Numbered from the stretch's first letter, positions 1,069 to 59,661 are shown. The stretch: DNA of 64,000 bases from Candidatus Latescibacterota bacterium (GCA_965208105.1 OZ242318.1:448001-512000); one strand, 5' to 3'. Numbers and translations: made by a program. The notes: generated by a model not told the origin, from the letters alone.

Positions 1069-1108
1069 TCTAGAAGGCCAGTACTGCACGGATAGATCCA
1101 ATTTTACT

Positions 1109-1196
1109 GCCGAAGTGGCGAAATTGGTAGACGCGCTGCGTTCAGGGCGCAGTGGGGTTTGTCCCCGTGGAGGTTCGAGTCCTCTCTTCGGCACCA
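1109..1196 (+). tRNA. tRNA-Leu(CAG)
   Basis: Cloverleaf: anticodon stem ctgcg/cgcag around TTCAGGG, long variable arm, GGTTCGAGTCC, encoded CCA. Confidence 0.97.
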
Positions 1197-1310
1197 TGAT
1201 TCAATTGGATAAAGTTAAAGAAGGTGGACAAGCACCGGAAGTACCGGGCAAATTTCGATACCCCGACCCAATCTTTCCTTTCGCCGGAATAGGAACTAGA
1301 GGAATTTATC

Positions 1311-1691: not shown

Positions 1692-1776
1692 GGGAATTCT
1701 CGAAATCCGGTTTCGTGGCGATCAATCCTGCGCCTCACCCCCACACATCACGAATGAATCAATCTGATTGACCGGG

Positions 1777-42957: not shown

Positions 42958-45870
42958 ATGTCATTGCTATTCACACTTGCACTTCTAGCTCTGTACCTGT
43001 CCGCTGCTGCGGCCGAAGATGACCGACTTGGAGGAGGTCCGGGCGAGTCGGAGGTAATCTCCGCCCGCCCCTTTCTGCGCATGCCGCGGGAAGGTTATCG
43101 CAACTACGCCCTGCAAACCTATACTCCCTACCCGGACCATTCTGTCCCCTACAATCAAAGACCCCGGGCCTTTTTCGGACCCATGGGAGACTATCTCATC
43201 ACCGGCTATGGACTTTACTCCTGGAACGAGCGCCGCCTGCCCGGCCTGGAGTACGGAAGCGCCATCGCGAAAAACCTGGACGTATTCCGCCCGATTTTCG
43301 ACCACGTCATCGTCGGCCGCGACGGCTACGGCAGCTGGGGCTACAGTCTCATCGTCGGAGACGGCCTGATGGCCCGCTTCACTCCCCTTACCATGTCGAA
43401 GACGGACCTCAATGGAACGCGCCTCGACATCCACACTCCTCACCTGGAAATTACCCTGGCCGGCTCGCGCATCGAGCGCCCGGTACACTGGGTGGAGGGC
43501 ATGAATACCGCGCCCTGGATGATCGAGGGGACCCACTACGCCGACGCCACATCGCTGCTGTTGGGCGGACGCGCACAGACCAGGATCGGCGCCCTGCGCC
43601 TGGGATTGAACGGCGCCAACGTGCACATCTACGACAGCACCCGGCCCGGCAACTCCCTCAAGGGAATCATCCGGCCGGACCACCCCCGGATCTTCTGGCT
43701 GGGCCTTGAGATCAGCGACGACTCACCCGCCGACGGCGGCGGCGGCGCAGTGGTGCAGGAACTGCAGCTTGTCGTCAACGGAGAGGCCAGGCCCGACATC
43801 CGGCCCCGCGTGGTCAGCCACGGGGCAGGGGTGCGCTCCGCGGTGGGAACCTACTCCCAGGCCACAGGGGAGTTCCGCGGCACCGGCTACAAGCGCAGAG
43901 GCTATCCCTACTTTGCCGACTATCTCTACCGCTTCGAGCACGAGGACGGAATCGACGTGAGCGCAAACACCAATCTGGCCGCTCTCCTCGAAACCTTCGT
44001 CATGGAGCCTCCAGGGACGGTGCTGCGGGCAGACGGAGACGATCTGGTGGTCGCCATGTTCGACCTCTCGCGGGAACCGGCAATCGAGTCGGTTGTTGTG
44101 GACGCCCTGCTGGGCAACGACTACCGCGTCCGCGTATTCACCCTGATCGATGAAAACCCCAGGGCCAAGGGGCACGCTACCCGGTGGAGGCCCAGTTCCC
44201 CCATCATTCGCCTGCGCGCCCCTGGCAACGTGCAGGATCTGTCCAACCTGGGGCGCCGGCGCTTCAGGATCGGCGAGAACACCGGCCTCTTCACCTACAG
44301 CGCCGATTTGGCGCTCGACCTGCCCGGCCTCGAAATCGACGCCGAGTACGCCCGCTCCGCGCTCCTTTCGCGCTATCCGGGATTTATGGGGGAAACTCCG
44401 ATCTTCCGCCGGGCGCCCCACTTCGGGGAACACGGCTCCGCCTATTTCGTCACGGCCAGCCGCTGGTTTTCCCGCGGTCGACTGGGCGCCGAGTACTTTG
44501 CCATCAATCCCGAATTCCGCACCCGGATGATCAGCCGCCGCTGCTGCCGGCTCGGCGAACTCATCGGCATAGGCTACAGCAGTATGCTGGGCCTGAGCCT
44601 GGTTCAGGACAATGACGACGGCGACCGCTTCCCCGAGGACGTGGGAAGGGTTCTCGGCAGTCCAAGCGACGGAGGAGACGCGGACGGAGTCTTCCTCAGC
44701 CAGGACGGGAACAACGACGGCATCCCCGACACCAACCGGAACTTCAACAGTATCCCCGACTGGAACGAACCTTTTCTCATGTTCGAATCCGACCCCAACG
44801 AGTACGTCTACGGACTCGACCGCAACAACAACGACGAACCCGACCACCGCGAGGACGACGCGACCCCCGACTATCCCTATGACCTCGACCAGCGCGGCTT
44901 CCACCTCTTCGGGCAGGTACACCTGAGCACCCACTGGACCATGGCACTGGGCCGCTACCGCACCAGGCAGATCGAGGGTGCCGGCCGCAACCATGCGGAC
45001 TACGCACTCCTGAGCTACCGCCGCAAGGGCGCGGACCGGGTGCGCTTCCTGTTCTTCGAAAACAACCTGCGGCGCCTGAAGGACGGAATTCAGGACAACT
45101 TCGCCTCCTACGGCGACCGTCCGCGCCTGGACCTCTACTTCACCTTTCGCGGCTACCTGAGCGAAATCTTCCTGAATGTCCCGCCTGGACTGCAGCCGGC
45201 CATCCTCTATCGCACAGGGAGGCGCCACACCGATGTGCTACTCTACCAGGACAGCTACGTCAACGAGACCTACCTGGAGGGTCACCTCAATCCCTGGTCC
45301 AGCCTCAACCTGGTCCACAAACTGCGCCTGCGCCTCAACTGGCAGCAGGGGGGAGACCTGCCCGGAGGCGCCTCGCAGCGGGCTCGCCGCCTCGACTACT
45401 GGACCCTGGTCAGCCGCGCCGACTACACCTGGCAGTGGGGCCGCCTGCAGATCAAGCCCAGGATCAAGTTCATGCTCCTGCGCCTGGTCGACCAGGACGC
45501 CGACCGCCAGCCCGGAGGGCGCTATGCCCCGCGCGAGCTGATCGCCGAGCACCGCATCATTCCCATCCTCCTGGTCTCCTGTCCCCTCCTGCGCCGCACC
45601 ACGATGCAACTGGGGCTGCAGGGGCTGGGCCCGCTGCCCTACCGCCTCGAAGACCGCGTCCGCGAGCGCAACAGCCTGCGCCGGCGCATCGGCTTTCTCA
45701 CTCTGACCAACCGCTCTCTCTACTTCGGCTACGACCTCTACAACATCGTGGGCATGCAGCGCGACAAACTGAGCTACGACGACACTTTCAGGCAGAGCTC
45801 CAACCGCGACACCTGGTCTTTCTTCATCCGCACATTGGTAGGGTTTACCGAGTACGGGCGGGCAATCTAA
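42958..45870 (+). CDS. Large hypothetical exported protein, paralog 3
   Basis: Signal peptide MSLLFTLALLALYLSAAAA; collinear with paralog 2 over the full length. Confidence 0.88.
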   Translation: MSLLFTLALLALYLSAAAAEDDRLGGGPGESEVISARPFLRMPREGYRNYALQTYTPYPDHSVPYNQRPRAFFGPMGDYLITGYGLYSWNERRLPGLEYGSAIAKNLDVFRPIFDHVIVGRDGYGSWGYSLIVGDGLMARFTPLTMSKTDLNGTRLDIHTPHLEITLAGSRIERPVHWVEGMNTAPWMIEGTHYADATSLLLGGRAQTRIGALRLGLNGANVHIYDSTRPGNSLKGIIRPDHPRIFWLGLEISDDSPADGGGGAVVQELQLVVNGEARPDIRPRVVSHGAGVRSAVGTYSQATGEFRGTGYKRRGYPYFADYLYRFEHEDGIDVSANTNLAALLETFVMEPPGTVLRADGDDLVVAMFDLSREPAIESVVVDALLGNDYRVRVFTLIDENPRAKGHATRWRPSSPIIRLRAPGNVQDLSNLGRRRFRIGENTGLFTYSADLALDLPGLEIDAEYARSALLSRYPGFMGETPIFRRAPHFGEHGSAYFVTASRWFSRGRLGAEYFAINPEFRTRMISRRCCRLGELIGIGYSSMLGLSLVQDNDDGDRFPEDVGRVLGSPSDGGDADGVFLSQDGNNDGIPDTNRNFNSIPDWNEPFLMFESDPNEYVYGLDRNNNDEPDHREDDATPDYPYDLDQRGFHLFGQVHLSTHWTMALGRYRTRQIEGAGRNHADYALLSYRRKGADRVRFLFFENNLRRLKDGIQDNFASYGDRPRLDLYFTFRGYLSEIFLNVPPGLQPAILYRTGRRHTDVLLYQDSYVNETYLEGHLNPWSSLNLVHKLRLRLNWQQGGDLPGGASQRARRLDYWTLVSRADYTWQWGRLQIKPRIKFMLLRLVDQDADRQPGGRYAPRELIAEHRIIPILLVSCPLLRRTTMQLGLQGLGPLPYRLEDRVRERNSLRRRIGFLTLTNRSLYFGYDLYNIVGMQRDKLSYDDTFRQSSNRDTWSFFIRTLVGFTEYGRAI
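45249..45870 (+). repeat. 622-bp near-identical direct repeat, copy 2 (3' end of paralog 3)
   Basis: Matches 42241-42862. Confidence 0.95.
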
Positions 45871-45921
45871 GGCCCCCCCGGGGAAACCGGCTGGAACCCC
45901 TTTTCGGGATCTTCTCTTCTT

Positions 45922-48072
45922 CTACATCTGCAGCGGGATGTTGCGAATCATTCCGGTGAGGGAGTCCACCATGAGCCAGATGCCGTTGCACAGCACGTGG
46001 CCGACGATCAGCCCCAGGAAGAATGGCTGTGTGCGGCGGTAGGCCGCGGCGCCGCCGTAGCGCAGCACCACCTTCTTGATCAGACAGGCCGCCAGAATAC
46101 TGAACCACATGTAGTAGATGACCATTCCGACGGGAAATCCGAGAGGATGCAGGGGCCACCACAGAAAGCGCATCCGCGCCCACAGCATGATCAGCATGGC
46201 AGCGGCCCCTCCCAGGTAAAATCCCAGACCGGTCCAGTACACCCCCCGGGGCTCCAGGTTGCGCAGCGCCACGTTGTAGATATCCGCAGGGGCAACCTGG
46301 AAATAGGATCCCCGCAGGTTGATGCCGCCGTATTCGTGGGCCATGTGCAGGATCATCCAGAAAGCGCCCGCGACGCCGATGGCCAGGGCCAGGACCACCG
46401 CGCCAAGCAGGCGGCCCCTGCTGCGCCGGTCCACCTCCCCCACCAGCTTGAGGCCGGTGGCGAGGACGGTCATCAGGTTGATGGTACCGTTGAGGGACCA
46501 GGCATAGCCCATGGAGAGGCAGAATACCCCTGTGGGGCCTATCAACTGCGATCCCAGGATCCCGGTCACCAGCTCGGGCGCCCCCAATGGAGACGACATC
46601 CCCACCAGACCGGCCTCGGCCACGCAGCGGGTTATGCCGATGAAGACACACAGGACGACCGCTACGAAAACCGCCGCCACCCACAGCGGAGTTCCCATCA
46701 GCCAGAGCCACCCTGCCATGACCAGGGGTCCTCCCACCGCACCTGCCACGGCAGTGCGATAGGAGAGGATCTCGTCGCCGTCGTCGACATGGGGAGCCCG
46801 CCCGAGAGCCTTGCGCGCCACGTTCTTCAGGTGCTCGCGTCCCATCCACAGGCCCGCGGCGACCAGTGCCATGAATGCACCAGCTCCCTGGTAGCCCATG
46901 AGCGGCACCGTGCTGAACCCATGGGTCACCGTCTGACCCGAGCCCAGGCCCATGAACACCAGGGCCCATCCCTCCAGCTTGAAGAGCAGGTGGAACAGGC
47001 AAATCCCGGCGGCGATCTTGGTGTTGACGAAGTAGCAGAATCCGATCCAGATGAAGCTGATCTGCACGATGATCAGCTCGACGTCGAGGACCGGGAAGCT
47101 CCAGAACATCCGCGGATGCACAACGGCCGGGTCGTAACTGTGCCATGCCTTGAGACTTCCCACTACCAGGGGAAGGGCACAGCCCGCCCACATGGCGGGG
47201 CTCTTGAAAAAGCGATTCACCAGCATCTCCCCCTTCTCCCCGCTCACCAGGGCCAGGGGCACCTGCGCCACCGGATATGGAAGGCGCTCGCGCTCCGCCC
47301 ACTGGCGCCGCAGGATCACCGCCATGGAAATCAGTGTGGCGTAAAGGGCACCCAGGAAGATCCCCCACCAGAACAGAGGCTCCACCCAGGCCTCGTAGGC
47401 AACCGAATGCCCGGCGCCCACGCCTTCGTAAAAGGCCTGGTTCTGATTGCCGTCGTCTACCATTATGCGGCGCTCGGGCAGGAGGGGAAAGAGTCTTTCC
47501 GCCCACCTGTTCTCGATGGAGGCAAAGTAGAAGAGGGCGGTGATTCCAGGCAGGAGGATCTCGCTCAATCCAAGGGAGCACACCGCCGATACCACCAGCA
47601 GCATGACGTAGACCAGGATCAGCTCCGAGCGATTGAGCGTCAGACTGCGGCCGTGGACTGCCATGGCCCAGTTCAGCACCAGCAGGAGGACCAGAAAGGA
47701 GGAGTATATCAGGAGCGGAGAGTAAAAATCAAGGGAGTCCGGCGGCCACCAGGCGCCAAGGTAAAGTCCGACGGCCAGCAGGGCGGTGAGCAGCGCCCTG
47801 TCCGGGCGTCCCGCGCCCAGCTTGAACAGCAGGTTCAGCACCCCGACCAGCAGGACCAGGAGCAGAAAGGCCCCCGAGGTGGTGGCGTTCTGGGCCATGT
47901 AGGGACCCTTGATGAGGATATTGCCGTAAGGCGCGCCAATGGCCAGGAAAAAGCTGAGTATTCCCCCCAGCAGGAAGGACCGCGCCCTCACCCCCTGGCG
48001 GCGGTCCCCGGAGCGGCTCCGGTCCTCGAGATATCTCTTCAGCCCAGGAGGCAGTTCGCGCCTCAACAGCAC
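45922..48072 (-). CDS. Polytopic membrane protein, DUF6785/DUF6784-like
   Basis: 716 aa with many TMs; QWAERERLPYP, R.VAEAG, WWPLHPLGF and K.VVLRYGG..YRR..PFFLGLI.G motifs (recognised from memory). Confidence 0.75.
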   Translation of the reverse strand: MLLRRELPPGLKRYLEDRSRSGDRRQGVRARSFLLGGILSFFLAIGAPYGNILIKGPYMAQNATTSGAFLLLVLLVGVLNLLFKLGAGRPDRALLTALLAVGLYLGAWWPPDSLDFYSPLLIYSSFLVLLLVLNWAMAVHGRSLTLNRSELILVYVMLLVVSAVCSLGLSEILLPGITALFYFASIENRWAERLFPLLPERRIMVDDGNQNQAFYEGVGAGHSVAYEAWVEPLFWWGIFLGALYATLISMAVILRRQWAERERLPYPVAQVPLALVSGEKGEMLVNRFFKSPAMWAGCALPLVVGSLKAWHSYDPAVVHPRMFWSFPVLDVELIIVQISFIWIGFCYFVNTKIAAGICLFHLLFKLEGWALVFMGLGSGQTVTHGFSTVPLMGYQGAGAFMALVAAGLWMGREHLKNVARKALGRAPHVDDGDEILSYRTAVAGAVGGPLVMAGWLWLMGTPLWVAAVFVAVVLCVFIGITRCVAEAGLVGMSSPLGAPELVTGILGSQLIGPTGVFCLSMGYAWSLNGTINLMTVLATGLKLVGEVDRRSRGRLLGAVVLALAIGVAGAFWMILHMAHEYGGINLRGSYFQVAPADIYNVALRNLEPRGVYWTGLGFYLGGAAAMLIMLWARMRFLWWPLHPLGFPVGMVIYYMWFSILAACLIKKVVLRYGGAAAYRRTQPFFLGLIVGHVLCNGIWLMVDSLTGMIRNIPLQM

Positions 48073-48109
48073 CTGCTTTCCACTGGAATGAAAACCGGAT
48101 TCCGCCCAC

Positions 48110-50758
48110 TCAGTAATTCAGCGGAGAGACCGCCTTGCTGACCATCGCCAGGGCGGCGCACAGCATGCCCACCAGGGCCATTCCCACGCCGAAGCCCACC
48201 GCCAGCACCATGGCATAGCGCCGCCATTCCTGCTTGCCGTAGCGCTTCCAGAAGTAGAACCTCGCCAGCAGCGCCCCGAAGATCTGGGGCAGCAGGCTGT
48301 GCGGGATGCCGATGACACTCTGCACGTAGCCCCAGATCAGAAAGATGGGCAACCCCAGGAAGGAAAGGATGGAATAGGCCACCAGCCCGAAGCCGGCCCC
48401 GAATGCGATAATGGGCCATTTTTTGCCGTCCACGGGATGGCCCCAGTCCTCGTCCACCTCCCCGTCGCCATCGTCGTCGCGGCCGTTGACCACTTCTTCG
48501 TCCACCTCCCCGTCGCCGTCGTCGTCGCGGCGGTTGCCGCTGAAGCGCAGATCCTCCCACAGGGCCTCGAACAGCAGGGGACGGTGGGAGGAGCGCAGGA
48601 GAAAATCCCCGCCGAAGCCCTGGGCCCGGTCCAGCTCGAAGTAGAAGTCCAGGGAGTCCTCCGCAACATTCTGTGCCGCGGCCCTTAAATGGGGGTTGGG
48701 GCTGTCTACCAGGTGGCCGTCCGGAGGCCACAGCAGGCGCGGAGCGGGCAGCTCCGGATCGCCCCCGCCAGATTCGGGCTGAGCTTCGATGATTCCCTCG
48801 AGCCGGGGCGCGGGGGGCGGCGAACCCCGCCCCTGGAAGTCGGTGAAAAAGTAGCCCACCCTCGACCAGGGGCCGTAGCTCCTCTTCTCGGGATCCGGGA
48901 CGTGGGTCTCCTGGGTCCCCCGCGCCCGCCAGAACCACCAGGTGCGGTCGCGCAGGTTGCTGGGACTCCACACCGCCTGGCCGCGCCCCACCTTTGCGCC
49001 TTCCACCTCCTCCCCTGCGCGCCACATCTTGTTGTACATGGTGCTCGACAGGAAGAAGGCCTGATCAAATGCCCTGAGGGGCCACATCTTCTGGGCATAG
49101 GGATAGGACTCGGATGGTATGGGCGCCAGGCGCCAGAGGAAGGTCCAGTACATCAGGCTCACGGCAAAGACGATGGGAATCATGAACAACTCGGCCTTGA
49201 GCAGGCTGGTGAAGCGCATGCCGGTGAGCTCCACCACGCGAAAATCTTCTGCATGTCCCCCGTAGTTGCGCGTCGGAAAGGGCACGAACCAGATGTCCAC
49301 CCCCCTGTAACCGGTCAGAAAGATGACCGCCTCGTTGATGTAGGGGATGGAGGCCTCGCGGCCGATCAGACCGTCCAGGCGGGCGCTGACGAAGGAGATG
49401 ATGGGAGCGTAGACGAAGGCGATGAGGAGGAAGACCACCAGCAGTCCGGTGCTCACTAGGGTGGGGAACAGGGTTTTGGCCAGGACGATGGGATAGAGGG
49501 CGGCGGTGCAGAAAAGGGCGACGCAGACCCAGATATTGAAATCCCCCCTCCCCAGATGCGCAATGCAGTATCCCCTGACCTCGGCGGGGCGCCTGCAGCT
49601 TCCGTGGCGGCAGACGCCGGTGGTAGGGCTTCTTTCCGCCTGGTTCTGCTCCCTGATCTCCTGCTGCCTGCGGCGTCCCGTGGCGAAAAGGTTGTAGAAG
49701 CTGATGGTGGTCACGGCGAGGGTGATGCCGATGGAGAAGGCGCGCCAGAAATCGATTCCGGTGGCGATCTGGGTGCGAATGGTGTCCATGCCCACCTCCC
49801 ACCGCGGCAACCAGCCGTAGGCGTAGAGGATGGGACTTACCGCGGTGTGGACCACGACTCCGGCGAAAGAACCGACCACCGCCCAGAAGGGCATGAGCAG
49901 GCCGGCGAAGATGGGACCCAGGTGAAGGGTGATGCCCAGGGGAGCCGCCTGCAGCAGGTTGCCCAGGTAGGGGGTGAAATCGGCAAAGGGAATGGGAATC
50001 AGTTCCAGGCGCTTGCCGAAGGCGATCTCCGTGATGGTTGGCAGCCCCACGTAGAGCACCCCGAACACCGTGCCGATGGCGGCGCCAATGCTGAACACCG
50101 GCCACTTCCAGGTTTCTCTCTCGCTGCCGCTCTCCTCGGCCAGGGCCATGGCCCCCAGCGCCGACATGGGCGCGGTGGGAAAGGGCAGCTGCTCCCGGTC
50201 GGAGGTCAGCCGGAAGAGCAGATAACCGGAGGTGAACCAGGCGATGCGGCCCACGATGGTGCCCAGCACCAGGAGCAGGATGGGCACCGCCCAGTCGCGG
50301 TGCAGAAAGGTGCGCTCGGCAATGGCCTGGGAATCCGGGTCAGGAACCCACCACGAGGGCAGCAGGCGGGAAATGCCGAACTGCTCTGCCTCGGCCGATC
50401 CCACGAAGTACTGGCGCCAGAGCAAATCGAGAAAGGCGCCCTCCTCCCGCGCGACCAGAGCAGACGCCACGTACACCAGCAGGAAGATCTCCTGCCGCTT
50501 CAAAGAGGTGAATGACCGCTTGGCCACCTCGAGGAACAGAATGACGGTCACCCATTGCGCCGCCGAGCCGATCGAGCCGCCAGTCACCAGTCCCAGATAC
50601 ATCTCGCCCGGGGTCATGATCAGGGAGATGAAGACCACCCCGAGGATGGTGCGCAGGGTGAAACCGCTTTCAAAGCGGTCGGGCGCCTGCAGCAGATCCC
50701 TGTACTCTTCGACTTCCTCCCACTGCCTGTCCTTGCGCCTGAGCATCGCCGGATTCAC
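48110..50758 (-). CDS. OPT-superfamily-like transporter with inserted soluble domains
   Basis: 882 aa; GFTLRTILG, AQWVTVILF.E and REQLPFP motifs, many TMs; GTG start overlaps the upstream stop (GTGA). Confidence 0.75.
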   Translation of the reverse strand: MNPAMLRRKDRQWEEVEEYRDLLQAPDRFESGFTLRTILGVVFISLIMTPGEMYLGLVTGGSIGSAAQWVTVILFLEVAKRSFTSLKRQEIFLLVYVASALVAREEGAFLDLLWRQYFVGSAEAEQFGISRLLPSWWVPDPDSQAIAERTFLHRDWAVPILLLVLGTIVGRIAWFTSGYLLFRLTSDREQLPFPTAPMSALGAMALAEESGSERETWKWPVFSIGAAIGTVFGVLYVGLPTITEIAFGKRLELIPIPFADFTPYLGNLLQAAPLGITLHLGPIFAGLLMPFWAVVGSFAGVVVHTAVSPILYAYGWLPRWEVGMDTIRTQIATGIDFWRAFSIGITLAVTTISFYNLFATGRRRQQEIREQNQAERSPTTGVCRHGSCRRPAEVRGYCIAHLGRGDFNIWVCVALFCTAALYPIVLAKTLFPTLVSTGLLVVFLLIAFVYAPIISFVSARLDGLIGREASIPYINEAVIFLTGYRGVDIWFVPFPTRNYGGHAEDFRVVELTGMRFTSLLKAELFMIPIVFAVSLMYWTFLWRLAPIPSESYPYAQKMWPLRAFDQAFFLSSTMYNKMWRAGEEVEGAKVGRGQAVWSPSNLRDRTWWFWRARGTQETHVPDPEKRSYGPWSRVGYFFTDFQGRGSPPPAPRLEGIIEAQPESGGGDPELPAPRLLWPPDGHLVDSPNPHLRAAAQNVAEDSLDFYFELDRAQGFGGDFLLRSSHRPLLFEALWEDLRFSGNRRDDDGDGEVDEEVVNGRDDDGDGEVDEDWGHPVDGKKWPIIAFGAGFGLVAYSILSFLGLPIFLIWGYVQSVIGIPHSLLPQIFGALLARFYFWKRYGKQEWRRYAMVLAVGFGVGMALVGMLCAALAMVSKAVSPLNY
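48450..48531 (-). repeat. Two 34-bp copies (48-bp period) encoding tandem RDDDGDGEVDE Ca-binding-type loops
   Basis: tcgtccacctccccgtcgcc(a/g)tcgtcgtcgcggc at 48450 and 48498. Confidence 0.9.
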
Positions 50759-53700
50759 CCGCCTTCCATGGCTATGCCCTCACCCAGCATCTGACGGGCC
50801 CTTTCCATGTGCTGCTCCCGTTCCTCATCCTTCAAGGTGTGCCAGATGAGGAACTCCTTGCGCAATCCATGCACGAAGCGCTGGTTCGTCGAGCGCCAGA
50901 AGGTGTCCTGGCCGCTGACGCGCTGAATGAAGAACTCGGCCGCGTAGATATTCTCCACCTCGGTGGGCTCGAAAACGATCTGCAGGTACTGGCTCACGCC
51001 CATGTCGAAGGGGGCCAGCCAGATCAGCATCTGTACCGCGTACTCCTCTCCCCTGGCCCCGCTTTCGCGAACCAGCCGGATTTCCTCGGTGAAGAAGGTT
51101 CCCAGGGACTCCTCGCTGTAGGCCCTGAAGTAGTTGACCAGAAAGCCGCACAGTCCCTCCACTTCCGCCTTGCCCACCATGAAGGGAAAGGGGAACTCCC
51201 AGCGGTCTCCCTCGGGAGCCGGCAACTGCCAGCGCCGCACCACCTCGGGGACCGCCGCCTGCGCCGCCATGCGCGCCGGGTAAAGGGTGGAGAGCAACAC
51301 CACCGCCATCACCAGCAGCGCTGCCACCACCGCAGACAGGGAGGAATAGTTCAGATTGACCCCCTCCAGGAAATTTGCCCAGATCAGCGCCTTTCCCATG
51401 CTCTGGCCGAGGACATATCCGCCGGCGATGCCCAGGACCGCATAGACGCAGGCCTCCGCCACGAAGAGCATGGAGATGTGGGCGGGAGCCAGACCCACCG
51501 ATGAGTAGATGCCGATCTCGCGGGAGCGCTCGTGTACCGCCCCGACCATGGTGTTGAGCACGATGAGGGCGGCGATGATCACGGGAACGATCAACTGCCC
51601 CAGGCCCTCCACCACCGTCATTCCCACGGAAGTGTAGGAATAGACGTTGATCCCATCCTCCTCCTCCAGGCCTGCGAACAGGCTGGTGGCCTGGCGCAGC
51701 AGAAAATCCTCGATCAGATCCCTCGCTTCCACTTCGGGGTGGAAGCGGACGGCCACCGAGCGCAGGTCGCCCCCCATCTGGCGGGCCAACTCGTAGGGCA
51801 CGACAAGAACGGTCTCGGGACGCTGGTGCACGAAGGGCCGGATGCCGCGGGGGTCTTCCCCAACTGCCGCTGCTCCGGTCTGGTCCACCGAGAGGTGGAA
51901 ATCGGCCGGGGTCGCCATCCCACCATCGAGGTCGCGACTGAGCGCCAGGCGGTTTGAGTCCACGAGGCCGCGCAGGAGCAATTGGCGGCCGAAAATACTG
52001 ACCCGCGCCCGGCCTACATCCTCTTCCGCGATCCCCAGCAAGGCGGCCATTTCCACTGGAACCAGGCAGGTGGATTCACCCGCCTCTTCAAACCAGGTGC
52101 CGGCCCGGAGAACCGCGTCCAGGACGCCGATTTGTTCTTCCTGGGGCGCCAGCCCCAGCAGGGCTCCGGCGCGGACCGAGCGCTTTCCGGATGTGACCGT
52201 GATATAGCCCTTTTCCTCCCCGCCCTGGAGTATAAACCAGCTTCGCGGACTGACGATGCCGTGGGACTCGAAATGAGAGCGCACGTATTCGAGGGCGGCC
52301 AGCTCCAGGGGTTCCCATCCCCAGTTCCTGATCAGGGCACCGGAATAAGCCCCTCCCTTGCCCAGCGGAAACCCCATAAAGCGAATCTGATTCTTGAATG
52401 AAGAGAAGGATAGCACGGTGAAGGTAAGCAGAACGAGAGTCGTCAGGGTCAGCCCGGTGCGCAGCTTGCGCCTCCGCATGTTCGAAATGCCCAGCATGAA
52501 AGCGGCATAGGCGGCGCCGACGCGGCTGATGTCGGTCTCGTGTACCTGGGCCGCAATCGCCTGGTAGTCGCGCATGTGGCGGTTGAAGCGGCCGACCACG
52601 AGCAGCAGCACGAAGACCGCCATGGCCATTATGGCAAAGGCCAGGAGGAGCACCAGAGGATGGGCGATCTCGAAGGCCGGGTGCACCTGCGAGATCACCA
52701 CCCAGATAAAGAGGAGCAGGAGAGCGAAGCCGGCCAGTTGCCGACGGATGTCGGCGGCGGCGAGGAACAGGCGTTCGGCGAAGAAGGCGGCTGGAATAAC
52801 CAGGGCCAGAAAAAACACCATGCCCTTGATCACGTCGTTGAGGGTGACCAGCGCATCCGGGTAAACGCGGGACTCGGTTCCCAGGGCGGCGCGAACGCCG
52901 GCCACGTGGCGGTCCCACTGCCTCGCCCGGCCGGCCTCCTCCGCCTCTTCCATCAAGGAGCCCGCCATCGCGTGAAGTTGGGTAAGACGCTGGTTTTCGA
53001 TGGCGTGCCGGCGCATGGTCCGCAGGCGGGCTTCGGTGAGCTGCCACATATCGCGCAGGGCGAGCACGGTGGTGCGGGTCAGCTCTTCCTCGGCGAGGAG
53101 ATAGCCGATTCCGCGCGCTTCCTTCTCGCTTGCGGTTCCCTGGCTGTTGACCAGCAGCATGAGGCCACCGTTCACGATGATCTTGAGACGGTCGCCATAG
53201 GCCCTGCCCGGAGGACCGAATACCACCCCTACGAGGTCCCGGGGGGACGGACTCAAGGCATAGCCGCAACGGCGGGCGTCGCGTCCTCCGGCATCGAGGA
53301 TCTTCAGATTCTGCATGGGCAGGAGAAATCGCGGATCGAGGAGACTGAAGAGGGGCCGTTGAACAGCCTCGAAAAGAACCAGGGTTTTCTTGTTGGTGGT
53401 GAAGCGGATGCTGCTCTGCAAGGAACCGTTGTCGGCAGGCTCCCCGTGGTGGTCCTGCGCCCTTATGCTCAGATCGGGGGCGAGGACGATCGACCCGGTC
53501 TTCGGCTCGAGCCCGTAGGCGCTGACCATGGCCATGCCCTGGGGCAGACCTCTGATTTCGGCATTGCCGTCCGTGCCGCAGATGTGGTAGCGCCACCGGC
53601 GAACCCCTTGGCGAGTCCCTTCCAGCCCCAGGTCCTGGCGGGCCGTTCCCCGGCCCTGGTGGGGGTCCGCAGGCCTTATGGCTGCCAGCGCCCCCGCGAC

Positions 53701-55197
53701 GGCCCGGTCCGGCAACTGGCTCCTGGGGGGAAAGGTGCGCACTTCAAGGCGCAGATCCCGCAGGCGGTCCTTGAGTGCCTGGCCGAACTCGTCCATACCG
53801 GCGAAAAGTTCAGGGTCGTCGAGGGCGCGGTGCAGGATCCTCTGGAGCAGGGCGATCTGTCGCTCCAGGTTGCCGAGGTTCACCTTCCCGGGACGGTCCA
53901 GGGGAGTATCCAGGTTGAACCGTCCGTCGTGCACGGTGACGAAGGCCAGGGAGACGATCCCGGCCGCGTGGGCCATCTCGCTGTTGACCGGGGCGCCCTG
54001 GGGCACGAAAGAGGACCATCCCAACCCCTTGATCGGGCTGATGCCGTTGACGAGGACTTCATTGCCATGCCTGCCCAACAGCGGCGCCATTTGCCTGGCG
54101 TAGGCGGTAAACCTGCGGCCGAAGGGGGCATAGAAGCGCCGCAAATCGGCGTTGTGGGTACTGTTCCACAGGCCCAGAAGATCGCTTTGGCTGGAAAGAT
54201 CCAGGCTTATGAAGAGCTTCACCTGGAGGGGGTCCGCGACCCGTCCGACGTAATCCTCGTGGAGGCGGGCGTGGCGCTCGAGAAAATCCACCATCCCCTG
54301 CATGGCCTGAAAATGAGCCGAAGTGGCAGCCAGAACCACGGTGCGGGCCGGCGGATGCGCCTTCAGGTGGCGGGCAAGCTCCAGAAGGGCGGTTATGCTG
54401 CAGGCGGCCTCGGCACTGGGGGCCAGCGCCGGCACCACCGAAGTGCCGTCGTAATAGGCCTCTACCACGATAATTTCGCGATTCAGCTCCGGGTGCGCCC
54501 CCGCAATCCTGCCGACGATATTCCAGGCAGGCCTCTCCTCCCAGTCCATCCTTCCCCGCAGCAGCCCTTCAACCTCGCCGCCCTGCCGGAGACGCTGGAG
54601 CAGGCTCAGGCCCGCATTCCGCCCGATCCAGAACCGCGGAATATCCAGGGGCGCTTCAACAAATTTGTCGTTTGCCTGTCTCCAGGTGGAGCTCTCGGGC
54701 TCAATGAAGATTACCGCCCTTGCTCCCAGGGCCGCGGCGTGCAGCCATCGGTCCTCGCTGTTGAATTCGAGCAGGGCGATGCGCCCCTCCACCTGCCGGC
54801 CGTTGAACTCGGACCAGTCGCCGTGCCCGCCATAAATCATGGGCGCTCTCACCCCCTCCGCAGGCAGTGTAGAGGTGCGCACCAGGTTGGGCCACAAACT
54901 CCAGATCTCGAAGACCCTGCCTTCCACCGTCAGCAGGAAGCCCCGGTCCATGGGCACCACCACCCCGTACTCCTCCCGGCGCAAATCCTCCACTCCGATG
55001 GCACCCAGTTCGGCCTCTACATAATCCGCCGCCAGAGCACAGCCAGGATAGCCCACCACTCTCGAGCCCGGCGCACTGAAGCGCTCGATGACACCGCGCA
55101 GATGGTCCACGTCGGCACCGGCGCAGGCATGCGCAATCAGAAGCCCGGAAGCTACCCGGAGAAGAAAAAATGCTCGCAAGGGAAATTTTTTCGGCAT
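50755..55197 (-). CDS. Fusion protein: signal peptide, PA/M28-like peptidase fold, TM block, MacB/FtsX-like permease, C-terminal soluble domain
   Basis: SRVVGYPG, NIVGRIAG..IIVVEAYYD and PPARTVVLAA (M28 fold); NMRRRKLRTGLT and HERSREIGIYSSVG..LYPARMAA (FtsX). Confidence 0.8.
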   Translation of the reverse strand: MPKKFPLRAFFLLRVASGLLIAHACAGADVDHLRGVIERFSAPGSRVVGYPGCALAADYVEAELGAIGVEDLRREEYGVVVPMDRGFLLTVEGRVFEIWSLWPNLVRTSTLPAEGVRAPMIYGGHGDWSEFNGRQVEGRIALLEFNSEDRWLHAAALGARAVIFIEPESSTWRQANDKFVEAPLDIPRFWIGRNAGLSLLQRLRQGGEVEGLLRGRMDWEERPAWNIVGRIAGAHPELNREIIVVEAYYDGTSVVPALAPSAEAACSITALLELARHLKAHPPARTVVLAATSAHFQAMQGMVDFLERHARLHEDYVGRVADPLQVKLFISLDLSSQSDLLGLWNSTHNADLRRFYAPFGRRFTAYARQMAPLLGRHGNEVLVNGISPIKGLGWSSFVPQGAPVNSEMAHAAGIVSLAFVTVHDGRFNLDTPLDRPGKVNLGNLERQIALLQRILHRALDDPELFAGMDEFGQALKDRLRDLRLEVRTFPPRSQLPDRAVAGALAAIRPADPHQGRGTARQDLGLEGTRQGVRRWRYHICGTDGNAEIRGLPQGMAMVSAYGLEPKTGSIVLAPDLSIRAQDHHGEPADNGSLQSSIRFTTNKKTLVLFEAVQRPLFSLLDPRFLLPMQNLKILDAGGRDARRCGYALSPSPRDLVGVVFGPPGRAYGDRLKIIVNGGLMLLVNSQGTASEKEARGIGYLLAEEELTRTTVLALRDMWQLTEARLRTMRRHAIENQRLTQLHAMAGSLMEEAEEAGRARQWDRHVAGVRAALGTESRVYPDALVTLNDVIKGMVFFLALVIPAAFFAERLFLAAADIRRQLAGFALLLLFIWVVISQVHPAFEIAHPLVLLLAFAIMAMAVFVLLLVVGRFNRHMRDYQAIAAQVHETDISRVGAAYAAFMLGISNMRRRKLRTGLTLTTLVLLTFTVLSFSSFKNQIRFMGFPLGKGGAYSGALIRNWGWEPLELAALEYVRSHFESHGIVSPRSWFILQGGEEKGYITVTSGKRSVRAGALLGLAPQEEQIGVLDAVLRAGTWFEEAGESTCLVPVEMAALLGIAEEDVGRARVSIFGRQLLLRGLVDSNRLALSRDLDGGMATPADFHLSVDQTGAAAVGEDPRGIRPFVHQRPETVLVVPYELARQMGGDLRSVAVRFHPEVEARDLIEDFLLRQATSLFAGLEEEDGINVYSYTSVGMTVVEGLGQLIVPVIIAALIVLNTMVGAVHERSREIGIYSSVGLAPAHISMLFVAEACVYAVLGIAGGYVLGQSMGKALIWANFLEGVNLNYSSLSAVVAALLVMAVVLLSTLYPARMAAQAAVPEVVRRWQLPAPEGDRWEFPFPFMVGKAEVEGLCGFLVNYFRAYSEESLGTFFTEEIRLVRESGARGEEYAVQMLIWLAPFDMGVSQYLQIVFEPTEVENIYAAEFFIQRVSGQDTFWRSTNQRFVHGLRKEFLIWHTLKDEEREQHMERARQMLGEGIAMEGG

Positions 55198-55316
55198 GGA
55201 GCTTTCCCGGGGGCCATTCAGAATTTCTATCTATTGAAAGCGGGCCCGGCCCCGCTGCCCGGCGGACCCTCCTCAAACGCGAAAAGGCACCCTGGCAACC
55301 TCGAGCAAACGCGGAT

Positions 55317-55345
55317 TTGATCGGCTCCCACCGGTTTAGTATAGT
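55317..55345 (+). promoter_or_regulatory. Putative sigma70 promoter for the fucosidase in the divergent intergenic region
   Basis: TTGATC-17 nt-TATAGT. Confidence 0.45.
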
Positions 55346-55404
55346 AAACTATAATCCGACCGTCCCACCCCCATTCAACCCCGGCAGGAGAGGAGAGTCT
55401 CCAG

Positions 55405-56718
55405 ATGGAACTGAAAAAGAGCGGCGGCGCCACCGACTGGTTCGTCCACGACCGATTCGGTCTCTTCATCCACTGGGGTCTCTACGCCCTTCCCGCGCGC
55501 CACGAGTGGGTCAAGCAACGCGAGGAAATTGCGGACGAAGCCTACGACCGCAAGTACTTCTCGCGCTTCGATCCCGACCTCTACGATCCGGACTCCTGGG
55601 CAGAGGCCGCCGCAGCCGCCGGCATGAAATATTTCGTGGTCACCAGCAAACACCACGAGGGCTTCTGCCTTTGGGATTCGCAGCTTACCGACTACAAGGC
55701 GACCAGGACGCCCGCTGCACGCGACCTCCTGAAACCCATGGTCGAGGCCTTTCGCCGGCGCGGCATGAAGGTCGGGTTCTACCACTCCCTCATCGACTGG
55801 CATCACCCGGACTTCGTCATCGACGACCTGCACTCAATGCGCAACCACCCCGACCGCGAACGGCTCAACGCCGGGCGCCGGCAGAAAAGCTACATCGAGT
55901 ATCTGCACGGCCAGGCGCGGGAGCTGTTGACCCGGTTCGGCCGCGTCGACCTGCTGTTCTACGATTTCAGTTACCGGCCAGGAGAGCGGGGCCGCTCCCC
56001 GGATCTCACCGGCAAGGGACGCGACGACTGGAACAGCCGCGACCTCATTGCGTTGACCCGCAAGCTGCAGCCCGACATCCTCGTCAACGACCGGCTGGAC
56101 CTGCACGAAGTGGAGGGAGGCTGGGACTACATGACCCCCGAGCAGTTTCTGCCCCGGGACCCGGTCACAGTTGGCGGCCGGCCGGTGTTGTGGGAAACAT
56201 GCCAGACCTTCTCCGGCTCTTGGGGCTACCACCGCGACGAGACCTCCTGGAAGAGCGTCGAACAACTGATTCGCATGCTGATCGAGGTGGTGAGCAAGGG
56301 GGGGAACCTCCTCCTGAACGTGGGCCCCACCGCCCGCGGGGAGTTCGACGACCGCGCCCTGGAGCGCCTGCGCGGGATGGGCGAATGGATGAAGCGTCAC
56401 GGGCGCTCGATCTACGGCTGCACCATGGCACCTGGAGAGTTCGCCGCGCCACCGGACTGCCGCCTCACCTACAATGCGCGCACCCGCCGGATCTATCTCC
56501 ACGTCTTTGCCTGGCCGTTCAGGCAACTTCACCTCGACGGCTTTGCAGGAATGGTCGATTACGCCCAGCTACTCAACGATGGTTCGGAGATACTCATCAG
56601 TGAAGATCCAGGCCACTACCGCAGCGGCGACCGCCACCAGCGGCAGACCCTGACCCTTGAACTTCCAGTGGAGAAACCGCGCGTCGCAGTGCCCGTGGTA
56701 GAGCTCTTTCTGAGCTGA
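55405..56718 (+). CDS. Alpha-L-fucosidase (GH29), no signal peptide
   Basis: RFGLFIHWGLY, SKHHEGFCLWD, LLFYDF nucleophile region, WETCQT..SWGY and GGNLLLNVGP. Confidence 0.95.
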   Translation: MELKKSGGATDWFVHDRFGLFIHWGLYALPARHEWVKQREEIADEAYDRKYFSRFDPDLYDPDSWAEAAAAAGMKYFVVTSKHHEGFCLWDSQLTDYKATRTPAARDLLKPMVEAFRRRGMKVGFYHSLIDWHHPDFVIDDLHSMRNHPDRERLNAGRRQKSYIEYLHGQARELLTRFGRVDLLFYDFSYRPGERGRSPDLTGKGRDDWNSRDLIALTRKLQPDILVNDRLDLHEVEGGWDYMTPEQFLPRDPVTVGGRPVLWETCQTFSGSWGYHRDETSWKSVEQLIRMLIEVVSKGGNLLLNVGPTARGEFDDRALERLRGMGEWMKRHGRSIYGCTMAPGEFAAPPDCRLTYNARTRRIYLHVFAWPFRQLHLDGFAGMVDYAQLLNDGSEILISEDPGHYRSGDRHQRQTLTLELPVEKPRVAVPVVELFLS

Positions 56719-56751
56719 GCCGGGGAGACACCCTCCGGCGGCCGGGGCGGC

Positions 56752-57177
56752 TCACTCTCCTGATTTGCGCGCCTCCAACAGGCGGACCGCCACATAGGCC
56801 AGGAGCGCGAAAACGAAGAAGACGAGCAGCATCCATGCAATCCCCTGCAGGGTTTCGATGATGGTGCGGTAGACTTCGAGGACCCAGCGCTCGGTGGTCA
56901 GGGCCAGCGCGAACGCCTCTCCGGTCCCACCCTTCCGCAACCCGGGCTGGGCCAGGGAACGCGGCGTTATGTAGCGCTCCAGCTCCCAGACCCGCACTCC
57001 CTTGGAAATTCCCACCACATAGATGGCGAAGCGCATGTACCTCACCCAGGCGGAGCTGATCTCCTCGGCGATGATGCGCTGCACAATCCCGGCGATCGGC
57101 CCATTGAAGAGGTGGGCGACCAGAGCCGAAACCCCCAGGGCGATCAGGAACGTCACCAGCAGCAGTGTGATGAACAC
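56752..57177 (-). CDS. Small hypothetical membrane protein (about 3 TMs)
   Basis: GTG at 57177 after a strong RBS (AAGGAGG); hydrophobic helices. Confidence 0.75.
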   Translation of the reverse strand: MFITLLLVTFLIALGVSALVAHLFNGPIAGIVQRIIAEEISSAWVRYMRFAIYVVGISKGVRVWELERYITPRSLAQPGLRKGGTGEAFALALTTERWVLEVYRTIIETLQGIAWMLLVFFVFALLAYVAVRLLEARKSGE

Positions 57178-57297
57178 CTTCCTCCTCCTTTCACGAAGGG
57201 ACAACGATGCCGCAACCTGGACCAGGCCGAACACTGGCGGACCCAGGACGGATTTCAACGCGGAAGCGGCCTTCCACCTCTCTTCCCGATGCACCGT

Positions 57298-58341
57298 TCA
57301 ATGGACCGTGCGTTCCCACAGCACCACGCGCTCGGGGTCGACCAGGGGAAGGACGGTATCTCCCGGCCGCCAGGACGGCTCTCTGGCGGCAAGGACATGG
57401 ATCTGGCATCCCGCCCACTCTACGAGAAGAATCCTGTGGTGCCCCGCGTCTTCGATCACCCGCACCAGGCCAGGGTCCTCCCCGCCGGCGAGGGCGATGT
57501 CTTCGGGCCTTATTCCCAGAAGCATCTCGCCCTTCCTCCCCCCAGCGGGCATTACCCGCGTGCCCCCGGCGGCCACCCAGTAGCCCTCGAACTCCCGGAC
57601 TTCGAGAATATTCATGGGTGGACGGCCCAACTGCCTGGCCACCACGGGTGACAGGGGCCGGAGATAGATCTCTTTCGCTCCACCCGTCTGGAGCACCCGG
57701 CCGCCCTCCAGCACGGCAATGCGGTCGCCCATGGACATGGCCTCGGCCTGGTCGTGGGTTACGTAAATCATGGGAATCCCCAGCTCGCGCTGGAGCACGA
57801 CCAACTCCACCCGCAAAGCCTCGCGCAGTTTGGCATCCAGATTGGTGAGAGGCTCGTCCATGAGAAAGAGGCGCGGCCGCCTGACAACGGCGCGGCCAAT
57901 GGCGACGCGCTGCATCTCTCCGCCGGACAGTTGTTCGACCCTGCGCTCCAGGAGATCTCCGATCCGCAGCAGAGACCCCGCCCATTGGATCCGCTCCTCG
58001 ATCTCGGCCGCCTTCAATCGGCGGCCGGGAGCCCTCAAAGGGAACTCCATGTTGCGGCGCACGGTCCAATCCGGGTAGAGGGAAAAATTCTGAAAGACCA
58101 ATGCCACGTCGCGCCCGGGAGGCAGCCGGTGGGTTATGTCCTCTCCGCCCATTTCGATACGGCCGGCTTCGGGCATCTCCAGTCCGGCAATGGTCCGTAG
58201 AAGGGTCGTTTTTCCGGCTCCGGTGGGTCCCAAAACCACCAGGAGCTCGGAAGGGCCCAACTCCAGGCTGACGGAGCGCAGAGCCTCGACGCGGCCGAAG
58301 CGCTTGCAAACACCCAGAAGCCGGAGAAATCCGTTTTTCAC
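57298..58341 (-). CDS. Sugar ABC transporter ATPase (MalK-like, TOBE domain)
   Basis: GPTGAGKT, LSGGEMQR, LMDEP and YVTHDQ; true start is the GTG at 58341 overlapping the upstream stop. Confidence 0.93.
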   Translation of the reverse strand: MKNGFLRLLGVCKRFGRVEALRSVSLELGPSELLVVLGPTGAGKTTLLRTIAGLEMPEAGRIEMGGEDITHRLPPGRDVALVFQNFSLYPDWTVRRNMEFPLRAPGRRLKAAEIEERIQWAGSLLRIGDLLERRVEQLSGGEMQRVAIGRAVVRRPRLFLMDEPLTNLDAKLREALRVELVVLQRELGIPMIYVTHDQAEAMSMGDRIAVLEGGRVLQTGGAKEIYLRPLSPVVARQLGRPPMNILEVREFEGYWVAAGGTRVMPAGGRKGEMLLGIRPEDIALAGGEDPGLVRVIEDAGHHRILLVEWAGCQIHVLAAREPSWRPGDTVLPLVDPERVVLWERTVH

Positions 58342-59402
58342 AGAGCCTCGCCCGTATCCGGGTCGAAGCAGCGAATGTGTCGCAGGTCGAAGCCCAGGGA
58401 AACCTCCTCGCCGCGTCGATACGAGCCACCCCCACCCACCTGCATGGTCAGGCGGCCCGACCCCGTATCCAGGTAGACATTGCGGCAGAATCCCAGGTAC
58501 TCCTCCGTCAGCACCCTGGCTTCGAGGAGCCCCGGAAAAGCCGGGCGCACGAACTCCGGACGCACCCCCAGGACAGCCCTGCCCACGCGAAGGGGACGCG
58601 GCAAGGGAAGATCCCACCCTCCGGCTGACGGGGTGAAGCGGCAATCCTCCCCTTCCCCAGCCACCTCTCCCTCGATCAGGTTCATTGCCGGACTGCCGAC
58701 GAAATGGGCAACGAAGAGGCCGGCAGGCCGATCGTAGACTTCGGCGGGGGTACCGCTTTGTCTGATGCGCCCCTCGTCCATCACCACCACCTGGTCGGCG
58801 AGGGACATGGCTTCCTCCTGGTCGTGAGTGACGTAGATGGTGGTCACTCCCATTTCCAGTTGCCGGGAGCGGATCCACTCGCGCATCTCCAGGCGCAGGT
58901 CGGCGTCGAGCGTGCCCAGGGGCTCGTCCATCAGGTAGAGCCGCGGCCTGCGCACCATCGCCCTCGCCAGGGCTACCCGCTGCTGGTCCCCCCCGCTCAA
59001 CTGGGGCGGATACAGGTCGGCCAGTGCTTCGAGCCCGAGGCGCGCGAGGATCTCGGCGACGCGCTCGCGGCGCTGGCGGGGGACACCCTCCATGCTCTCC
59101 AGGGGGAAGGCGATATTGTCGCGCACCGTCAGGTGGGGATAGAGCGAGTAGAACTGAAAGACGAAACCCACATCCCGCGCCGCCGGGGACATGGCGCTGA
59201 CGTCGGCTCCGGCCACTTTGATCTGTCCCCCGGTGGGGACCTCGAGCCCGGCGATCATGCGCAGAGTGGTGGTCTTGCCGCACCCGGAGGGCCCGAGAAG
59301 TACCACGAACTCCCCTTCCTCGCAGCGCAAGTCGATGCCTTTGACCGCTGCGGTACCCTCCGCATAGATTTTGCTGAGGCGGTTCAGTTCCAGGAAGCTC
59401 AT
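58338..59402 (-). CDS. Sugar ABC transporter ATPase (MalK-like, TOBE domain)
   Basis: GPSGCGKT, LSGGDQQR, LMDEP, YVTHDQ and FVGSPAMN. Confidence 0.95.
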   Translation of the reverse strand: MSFLELNRLSKIYAEGTAAVKGIDLRCEEGEFVVLLGPSGCGKTTTLRMIAGLEVPTGGQIKVAGADVSAMSPAARDVGFVFQFYSLYPHLTVRDNIAFPLESMEGVPRQRRERVAEILARLGLEALADLYPPQLSGGDQQRVALARAMVRRPRLYLMDEPLGTLDADLRLEMREWIRSRQLEMGVTTIYVTHDQEEAMSLADQVVVMDEGRIRQSGTPAEVYDRPAGLFVAHFVGSPAMNLIEGEVAGEGEDCRFTPSAGGWDLPLPRPLRVGRAVLGVRPEFVRPAFPGLLEARVLTEEYLGFCRNVYLDTGSGRLTMQVGGGGSYRRGEEVSLGFDLRHIRCFDPDTGEAL

Positions 59403-59661
59403 GTGTGTTCGTAGATTTCCATCAGGGGACCGGTTGGAGCACCAACCGGATAGATAGTAACTTCCCGATGCGCGCTTGACGCCTGAGCAGGGGGAATTAC
59501 AGGTCAAAACTACGATTCAATCGCCGATCTGCAAAAGATCGAAGACCTGCCATCTGCCTTGACCGGAAAACCGGAAGGTTCTTTAAATGTCTGTACTGGA
59601 ATCCACCTCGTCCGCTACCCCGAAAGTTTTTGGTCCAGACCTCACCGAGTCGGAGGACATG

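Follow-up and report, generated by a model that had tools for sequence, protein, structure and literature searches.

A MacB/FtsX-type permease paired with OPT-fold membrane proteins in Latescibacterota, and a candidate ATPase encoded in trans

How might a permease of the FtsX/MacB type operate when no gene for its ATPase lies nearby? This question is posed by three genes of a Candidatus Latescibacterota bacterium that reside in a 64,000-nucleotide (nt) stretch of DNA (GCA_965208105.1 OZ242318.1:448001-512000), hereafter called the window, within a 4.85-Mb single-contig genome (G000). The genes encode an FtsX-type ATP-binding cassette (ABC) permease (P0001), a predicted OPT/YSL-fold protein (P0002) and an OPT-like member of the DUF6785/DUF6784 family (P0003). 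An earlier note on this DNA regarded them as a machine with no dedicated ATPase. That description holds for the locus and for 108 related loci, but probably not for the machine itself, because a LolD-type ATPase is linked to it in other lineages. With moderate confidence, we favor the view that the genes specify a type VII ABC system whose partners have the OPT fold and whose ATPase is encoded in trans, perhaps used to import peptides or glycopeptides, and we consider the ATPase-free interpretation to be probably wrong. The genes and their junctions are listed here, with protein lengths in amino acids (aa).

50755-55197, minus strand: P0001, 1480 aa, ATG start; M28/PA-like periplasmic domain plus MacB/FtsX-type ABC permease
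50755-50758, minus strand: GTGA overlap (4 nt, sequence read) of the P0001 stop and the P0002 start, indicative of translational coupling
48110-50758, minus strand: P0002, 882 aa, GTG start; divergent OPT/YSL-fold membrane protein
48073-48109, minus strand: 37-nt spacer between P0002 and P0003, with GGAAAG immediately before the P0003 GTG
45922-48072, minus strand: P0003, 716 aa, GTG start; OPT-like polytopic protein with DUF6785 (aa 126-582) followed by DUF6784 (aa 618-708) by Pfam
55198-55404, no strand assigned: 207-nt intergenic stretch between P0001 and a divergent alpha-L-fucosidase gene on its far side; presumed promoter region

Because P0001 and P0003 have Pfam matches and P0002 has many homologues, sequence comparison indicates that all three are genuine genes and not chance open reading frames (ORFs). 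Their products are polytopic, given the 8, 9 and 11 hydrophobic segments found in P0001, P0002 and P0003 by a Kyte-Doolittle scan. The ORF list, junction reads and hydropathy thus agree with the three minus-strand polytopic proteins, the GTGA overlap and the 37-nt gap described in the earlier note. At the P0001/P0002 junction the sequence reads ...GGC GGG TGA, with the GTG start within GGGTGA, and an alternative ATG lies 12 nt downstream. Contigs of 191-374 nt from metatranscriptomic library X20 match parts of all three genes with 0-13 differing letters. Because this library may contain DNA and no contig spans a gene junction, these contigs show neither transcription nor co-transcription.

For locus comparisons, genes of the P0001, P0002 and P0003 (DUF6785) types are called P1, P2 and P3. 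We compared 60 loci found with P0002 (a-type, L035-L094), 48 found with the second copy in the window's own genome (b-type, L108-L155) and 44 Lentisphaerota/PVC loci found with P0129, a 41% identical relative; the last group includes Oligosphaera ethanolica DSM 24202. Loci related to that of the window come from genomes titled Latescibacterota, some labelled Gemmatimonadota. Among loci whose upstream flank is 1 kb or longer, P1 lies directly upstream of P2 in 138 of 141 (a-type 56/56, b-type 40/43, Lentisphaerota 42/42). The b-type exceptions are L113 and L115, in which P1 is located kilobases upstream, and L138, which has no P1 match. A DUF6785 gene is present within 49 of 60 a-type, 26 of 48 b-type and 8 of 44 Lentisphaerota/PVC loci. 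The order is P1-P2-P3 here and in L002, L005 and L006, P3-P1-P2 in L003, L007 and most of L035-L094, P1-P3-P2 in L176, and ATPase-P3-P1-P2 in L099-L101. P1-P2(-P3) is therefore a conserved membrane module whose set is kept while its order permutes, and the co-occurrence of the trio on which the earlier note relied is strongly borne out. We detected the P0002 family in 107 of the 121 genomes sampled from the phylum; none of the 13 genomes of family f10 has it. Of the apparent DUF6785-P2 fusions (open frames of 1482-1483 aa in G111 and G107), at least the one in G111 was rejected as an overlapping-frame artefact, the genes being in different frames at that locus.

The second pair in the window's genome, P1b-P2b (C1:4685679-4692843), is 43% identical and lacks DUF6785. 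Directly after P2b, all 48 b-type loci carry a gene for a 336-aa soluble protein without a Pfam match (own copy L034:5661-6671, minus strand), which is usually followed by one for a 200-aa protein with three transmembrane (TM) segments and a weak PAP2 match; a Pfam scan of both otherwise gave noise. These two proteins are probably further subunits of the b-type system.

P0001 runs from a signal or anchor segment through a PA/M28-like region, some 450 further residues and three TM helices to a MacB-type unit and a C-terminal domain. Its parts are as follows.

aa 9-27: signal or anchor segment, preceding the M28/PA-like region
54208-55110 (aa 30-330), minus strand: M28/PA-like extracytoplasmic region with degenerate metal-ligand motifs (2ek8 alignment)
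52396-52833, minus strand: four hydrophobic helices, namely three extra TM (aa 789-867) and MacB-type TM1 (aa 916-934) (hydropathy)
51592-52395, minus strand: periplasmic core domain between TM1 and TM2 (aa 935-1202) (model, Foldseek)
51259-51591, minus strand: FtsX-type TM2-TM4 (aa 1203-1313) (Pfam PF02687, Foldseek)
50758-51258, minus strand: C-terminal domain (aa 1314-1480), predicted cytosolic, alpha/beta, of no known family

The Pfam FtsX profile (PF02687) matches residues 1206-1313 (E 2e-13, 50.9 bits against a cutoff of 25.5), and PDB sequence matches include YtrF, MacB, LolC and LolF together with the M28 aminopeptidase 2ek8. A structure model of aa 760-1480 has a mean predicted local distance difference test score (pLDDT) of 65, with good periplasmic and C-terminal domains and poor TM helices; the extra TM helices and TM1 appear in it at low pLDDT. 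The periplasmic core, about 270 residues between the TM helices at 916-934 and 1203-1221, mostly scores 80-92 and resembles the periplasmic domains of MacB, LolE and YknZ (Foldseek template-modeling score TMt 0.51-0.60). Foldseek also groups the C-terminal half of the protein with MacB, LolE, HrtB, YbbP, YtrF and BceB (best E 3e-14, MacB 5gko). Pfam MacB_PCD matches the P0001 homologues in L003 and L034, but not P0001 itself. Pfam, PDB sequence matches and Foldseek therefore concur with the FtsX/MacB-type fusion that had been proposed. The C-terminal domain is modeled with pLDDT mostly 65-87 as beta-alpha-beta4-alpha2 and has many invariant columns in alignment A3. A protein atlas search with this domain gave no usable match, and Pfam scans of aa 481-790 and aa 1319-1480 gave nothing above noise.

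The N-terminal region of P0001 aligns to aminopeptidase 2ek8 at E 2.8e-5. Pfam PA matches the whole protein at E 3e-4 and its N-terminal half alone at 22.4 bits, whereas Peptidase_M28 reaches 21.7 bits (cutoff 21.3) with that half alone and does not match the whole protein. The zinc-ligand and catalytic-glutamate pattern of M28 enzymes (H, D, EE, D/E, H) is absent: P0001 has YYD, APxAE and ATSAH(H/F) where 2ek8 has HHD, NDD and AEE, presumably the metal-ligand positions of the M28 family. The replaced motifs are found in all 17 aligned homologues of a-, b- and c-type. If these ligand identities hold, the replacements make the domain probably non-catalytic, perhaps a conserved pseudo-peptidase that serves as a binding module instead of an enzyme. 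P0001 thus shares PA plus M28-like sequence similarity with M28 peptidases that carry a PA domain, but its family has lost the ligand positions throughout and has the domain tethered to an ABC permease. The transferrin receptor is a non-catalytic relative of M28/PA peptidases.

P0002 itself has no Pfam match at E<=0.1, and so falls short of the OPT profile cutoff, but 8 of its 23 scanned relatives pass (P0197, P0263, P0221, P0216, P0254, P0125, P0130 and P0235), as does the P2 orthologue of Oligosphaera (33.1 bits). P0002 is consequently assigned to the OPT superfamily by transitive homology only. Its model (pLDDT 84.5, predicted template-modeling score 0.83) has barley Yellow Stripe 1 as its sole significant PDB match (7wst, E 2e-8; 7wsr, E 3e-7), with TMt 0.52-0.54 over about 579 columns. 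P0002 is accordingly modeled as an OPT/YSL-fold protein (PF03169, TC 2.A.67), as had been suggested earlier; ion-coupled transport of peptides or metal chelates, a trait of this family, is putative for it. Homologues at E<=1e-3 number 910 in one library and 927 cluster representatives in another, and identity across the best 120 clusters is 68-97%. A protein atlas search with P0002 returned only unnamed Latescibacterota clusters. Two features distinguish the protein from ordinary OPT/YSL members.

49556-49612, minus strand: zinc-knuckle-like loop motif C-x-H-x2-C-x10-C-x2-H (aa 383-401) (alignment columns)
48419-49036, minus strand: beta-rich insert of roughly 200 aa (aa 575-780) that includes Asp-rich DDDGDGEVDE repeats (model secondary structure)

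The zinc-knuckle-like motif, at which there is a weak Zf_WRKY19 match (E 0.014), occurs only in the four closest rows of alignment A1 (P0002, P0054, P0081 and P0124). The RGD that follows it (aa 402-404) persists in almost every family member, even where identity falls to about 35%. A Pfam scan of P0002's own insert gave nothing above noise; PDZ families (PF17820, PF00595) occur in many homologues of about 1070 aa, while P0127 carries WD40 and P0125 carries Reg_prop.

P0003 is a full-length member of its family, with both domains in order (DUF6785, E 1.1e-96, 324.8 bits against a cutoff of 25; DUF6784, E 8.6e-26, 90.5 bits against 26.4). BLASTP of P0002 against P0003 found nothing significant. 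Only profile comparison connects them: hhalign aligns the P0002 family to the DUF6785 family with a probability of 90.5% (E 1.4e-6, 508 columns, including an ERLPFP/ERLPYP motif). Both proteins can therefore be called OPT-like and distantly related, in keeping with the OPT-fold subunits of the earlier note, with the link from DUF6785 to OPT made here by hhalign only.

Where, then, is the ATPase? No LolD-clade ATPase is encoded within about 9-10 kb of the cluster in any of the 60 a-type or 48 b-type Latescibacterota loci. The nearest ABC ATPases in the window are two tandem MalK/UgpC-type genes with TOBE domains (57298-59507, minus strand), past the divergent fucosidase gene. We rejected this pair as the partner on account of its TOBE/MalK domains, the intervening fucosidase gene and its synteny in only 1 of 60 loci. 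A 661-aa "ABC" ORF at 57298-59283 is an open-upstream-frame artefact that corresponds to the same two genes. No permease gene was seen beside the pair, and a gene for a 180-aa membrane protein follows at 56752-57294.

Other lineages present a different arrangement. In Oligosphaera ethanolica DSM 24202, the gene order is FtsX permease (491 aa), ATPase, P1 (1618 aa), P2 (674 aa), ATPase. Across Lentisphaerota, 41 loci have a long enough downstream flank, and in 38 of them a LolD-clade ATPase gene begins no more than 1.7 kb beyond P2; one is also encoded upstream in 33 of the 34 loci whose upstream flank suffices. Within Latescibacterota, a LolD/MacB-type ATPase heads the cluster in four loci of families f2 and f3. 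Three of these (L099, L100 and L101) carry the ATPase, DUF6785, P1 and P2 on one strand, and the fourth (L102) has three genes inserted. In L099 and L101 roughly 0.6 kb separates the ATPase gene from the cluster, and in L100 roughly 1 kb; this interval holds no annotated gene, and the ATPase has no other permease next to it. Judged by coordinates only, seven more f3 genomes have their ATPase and P2 matches 7.5-7.8 kb apart on one strand of a single contig.

The window's own genome also offers a candidate. Every FtsX locus in this genome has an ABC ATPase within 2.3 kb, except those of the two P1 paralogues. The sole LolD-clade ATPase without an FtsX neighbour (G000:C1:1523962-1524714) lies about 1.03 Mb from the cluster, flanked by a short-chain dehydrogenase/reductase gene and by a response-regulator gene on the other strand; a 297-aa ORF beside it was discarded as an antisense frame of the latter. 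Its best NCBIfam matches are LolD, MacB and FtsE, it retains intact Walker A, signature and Walker B motifs, and counterparts with 78-88% identity occur in 36 of 40 genomes of family f1. One clade (support 96/94) unites this solitary ATPase with the f2/f3 cluster-head ATPases, the Lentisphaerota ATPases that follow P2, and a "second" group. Within it, the "second" sub-clade (93/91) comprises an ATPase at 3035 kb of the window's genome and the Lentisphaerota upstream ATPases, each beside a small FtsX permease. Every Latescibacterota genome examined has one "second" ATPase and one that is either solitary or cluster-head. Our interpretation is a single cognate ATPase lineage, linked to the module in some lineages and apparently moved elsewhere in family f1, in which the permease cluster has duplicated. 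Orthology between the solitary ATPase and those associated with P1 is plausible on these sequence comparisons. A predicted complex of P0001 (aa 760-1480) with the solitary ATPase scored 0.24 against a mark of 0.32 and, having been run without controls, counts neither way.

The linkage of LolD/FtsE-type ATPases to the module in Lentisphaerota and in the f2/f3 loci, together with the solitary ATPase, is the observation that turns the argument away from the earlier note. Given this linkage, the proposal that OPT-fold subunits energize an ATPase-less machine is not borne out. We therefore return to a type VII ABC system with a trans-encoded ATPase, for which the solitary gene is the best candidate. 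P0001 would be the permease, having a four-TM FtsX bundle, a periplasmic core, a periplasmic arm of about 760 aa, three extra TM helices and the cytosolic C-terminal domain. P0002 would be its obligate OPT/YSL-fold partner, and P0003 a second OPT-like protein that joins them in Latescibacterota. Cytosolic ATP hydrolysis would drive mechanotransmission in the periplasmic arm, by analogy with MacB and FtsEX. The arm might capture or release a peptide-like ligand and pass it to the OPT-fold subunit(s), which would offer the route across the membrane that is missing from MacB-type permeases. Our data show the folds, the constancy of the pairing and, in other lineages, a linked ATPase; that the proteins form a physical complex, which ATPase serves them in trans, what they transport and in which direction are what we infer.

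Compared with known type VII ABC systems (MacB, LolCDE, FtsEX, HrtBA, BceAB, YbbAP and YtrEF), the system has the same FtsX-type bundle with a periplasmic core between TM1 and TM2, and LolD/MacB-type ATPases are linked to the P1-P2 pair in other lineages. It differs in the long N-terminal arm, the additional TM helices and the C-terminal cytosolic domain of about 165 aa, in having an OPT-fold gene next in line, and in the unlinked position of the ATPase gene in this genome. FtsEX with EnvC, PcsB, RipC or CwlO, and YbbAP-TesA, are similar in that they are reported to couple a MacB-fold permease to a hydrolase-fold periplasmic module; in P0001 the hydrolase-like (M28/PA) module is instead fused to the permease and is probably for binding. 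Likewise, P0002 has the OPT/YSL fold of Yellow Stripe 1 (7wst/7wsr) but is set apart by its missing Pfam match, its insert and motif, and its genetic tie to an ABC permease. P0003 and its orthologues are embedded in the P1-P2 cluster, whereas most DUF6785/DUF6784 proteins (an uncharacterised family) encoded in the same genome stand alone.

Import of peptides or glycopeptides is the favored function. The hints are the OPT fold, the aminopeptidase-fold binding arm, the PDZ inserts in P2 homologues, the catabolic contexts of DUF6785 genes, and adjacency to a gene for an M42-family aminopeptidase, which is divergently adjacent to DUF6785-P1-P2 in 39 of 60 a-type loci (at about 1100-2300, minus strand, in most).

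Several points weigh against the trans-ATPase importer. The loci compared are relatives of one another, so they do not count as independent samples. Because no ATPase is linked in the 108 Latescibacterota loci, an ATPase-free mode keeps some probability in that lineage. The Lentisphaerota upstream ATPase probably serves its own small FtsX permease, and the cluster-head ATPase in L102 may serve another pump: at L102:13231-16855 (minus strand), genes for an 835-aa protein (a Pfam scan of which gave nothing above noise), an HlyD-type adaptor and an FGE-sulfatase stand between that ATPase and DUF6785. In the free tree, the three P1-associated ATPase groups lie outside the "second" sub-clade as a grade and not a clade. 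Forcing them together costs 0.22 log-likelihood units in an approximately unbiased (AU) test (p-AU 0.48), so monophyly is not rejected, for a group that had been named after the tree was inspected. Regarding the substrate, the window's genome has no M42 homologue at E 1e-10, and the M42 adjacency may be plain synteny among relatives. The very high conservation of P0002 would be at least as compatible with a housekeeping role in the envelope as with uptake of nutrients.

A more ambitious form of the trans-ATPase system is a hybrid primary/secondary transporter, in which the MacB-type mechanotransmission module, using a shared trans-encoded ATPase, would load or gate the OPT-fold channel. We put this forward as a tentative and rather doubtful proposal. 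If it were true, cytosolic ATP hydrolysis would drive capture of peptide-like ligands by a pseudo-peptidase arm and their passage through a carrier fold that is elsewhere known only from ion-coupled symporters, an architecture found in no current transporter classification. MacB-type permeases offer substrates no route through the membrane, and OPT carriers are generally regarded as acting alone.

Among the competing explanations, the one that survives best is an ATP-driven machine for envelope biogenesis or export, although we consider it unlikely. OPT-fold proteins would flip or present lipid-linked or membrane-embedded cargo, and the MacB-type module would extract it outward, perhaps pulling cargo from the outer leaflet and passing it on in the manner of LolCDE, HrtBA or YbbAP. 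This role is kept alive by the extreme conservation of P0002, which occurs almost throughout the phylum, as a housekeeping role would predict, and by precedent, because known type VII systems are reported to act outward or on the envelope (PMC5985334, PMC12646458, PMC7668044). The HlyD-type adaptor in the L102 cluster and an LPG-synthase-TM gene that is syntenic in 47 of 60 a-type loci point the same way. Against it stand the catabolic contexts of stand-alone DUF6785 paralogues and the lack of any outer-membrane duct or adaptor conserved beside the cluster. Moreover, characterised OPT/YSL members are importers.

Operation of the FtsX-type protein without an ABC ATPase strikes us as quite improbable. 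Here the OPT-fold subunits would couple ion flow to the periplasmic module, making it a mechanotransmitter driven by the proton motive force. The lack of a LolD-clade ATPase gene near all a-type and b-type clusters would be explained, as would the isolation of both P1 paralogues in a genome whose other FtsX loci have an ATPase close by, and the conserved extra cytosolic domain of P0001, with a fold of no known family, might replace the ATPase contact. This proposal must contend with the LolD-type ATPases that flank P1-P2 in Lentisphaerota and head the cluster in L099-L101, and with the intact solitary ATPase of the LolD/P1-associated clade retained in the window's genome. We also know of no ATPase-independent protein with the FtsX fold. 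Least probable of all is that two secondary carriers merely neighbor an unrelated ABC permease, which might be argued from the conjectural nature of the P1-P2 complex, from DUF6785 paralogues that function without P1/P2 neighbours and from the absence of DUF6785 in 11 of 60 a-type and 22 of 48 b-type loci, but which fits poorly with P1-P2 adjacency over two phyla, the start/stop overlap here and the permuted orders that keep the set.

The DUF6785/DUF6784 family deserves attention beyond this cluster. The window's genome encodes about 25 DUF6785 paralogues, mostly stand-alone and without P1/P2 neighbours, whereas none of 14 control genomes has DUF6785/DUF6784. Neighbours of the stand-alone genes (L156-L175) include PhyH dioxygenases (4 loci), GHL6/GH42-like hydrolases (2 loci) and secreted proteins with tails of the type IX secretion system (T9SS) (5 loci), as well as racemases and oxidases. 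Because these neighbours are mostly catabolic enzymes and T9SS-tailed secreted proteins, the expansion suggests a large uncharacterised family of nutrient importers.

Some additional features of the window were noted. Two adjacent genes for proteins of about 970 aa (39965-42862 and 42958-45870, plus strand) are convergent with P0003, and L002, a close relative, keeps the pair; a weak SlpA_C (S-layer) match was noted for the first only, and neither has an NCBIfam match. A group II intron reverse transcriptase/maturase is encoded at 61278-62639 (plus strand) and a DDE transposase at 62812-63999 (minus strand), and the guanine-plus-cytosine content falls to 0.56 at 60-62 kb. Contigs that are 98-99% identical over 5 kb to sequence within window positions 45500-59600 occur in a run labelled sponge metagenome (X4), and most other holders of this stretch, from 9 studies, are labelled sponge or marine metagenomes; the runs aligned were X4, X12 and X20.

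A literature search, with supplementary files outside its reach, found no description of a MacB/FtsX-OPT pairing. In the text that could be searched, nothing was found on DUF6785 or on Latescibacter with FtsX; OPT together with FtsX returned only a transporter census, and Latescibacter with oligopeptide transporter only environmental surveys. Few if any Latescibacterota are known in culture. Lentisphaerota carry the module as well, among them Oligosphaera ethanolica DSM 24202, a cultured strain that makes bench tests feasible.

Our findings indicate that a "missing ATPase" can be an artefact of gene order in one lineage. They also provide a first functional lead for DUF6785/DUF6784. Most broadly, the obligate, phylum-wide pairing of a MacB-type permease with an OPT-fold protein suggests a previously undescribed coupling of ATP-driven periplasmic work to a carrier-type channel.

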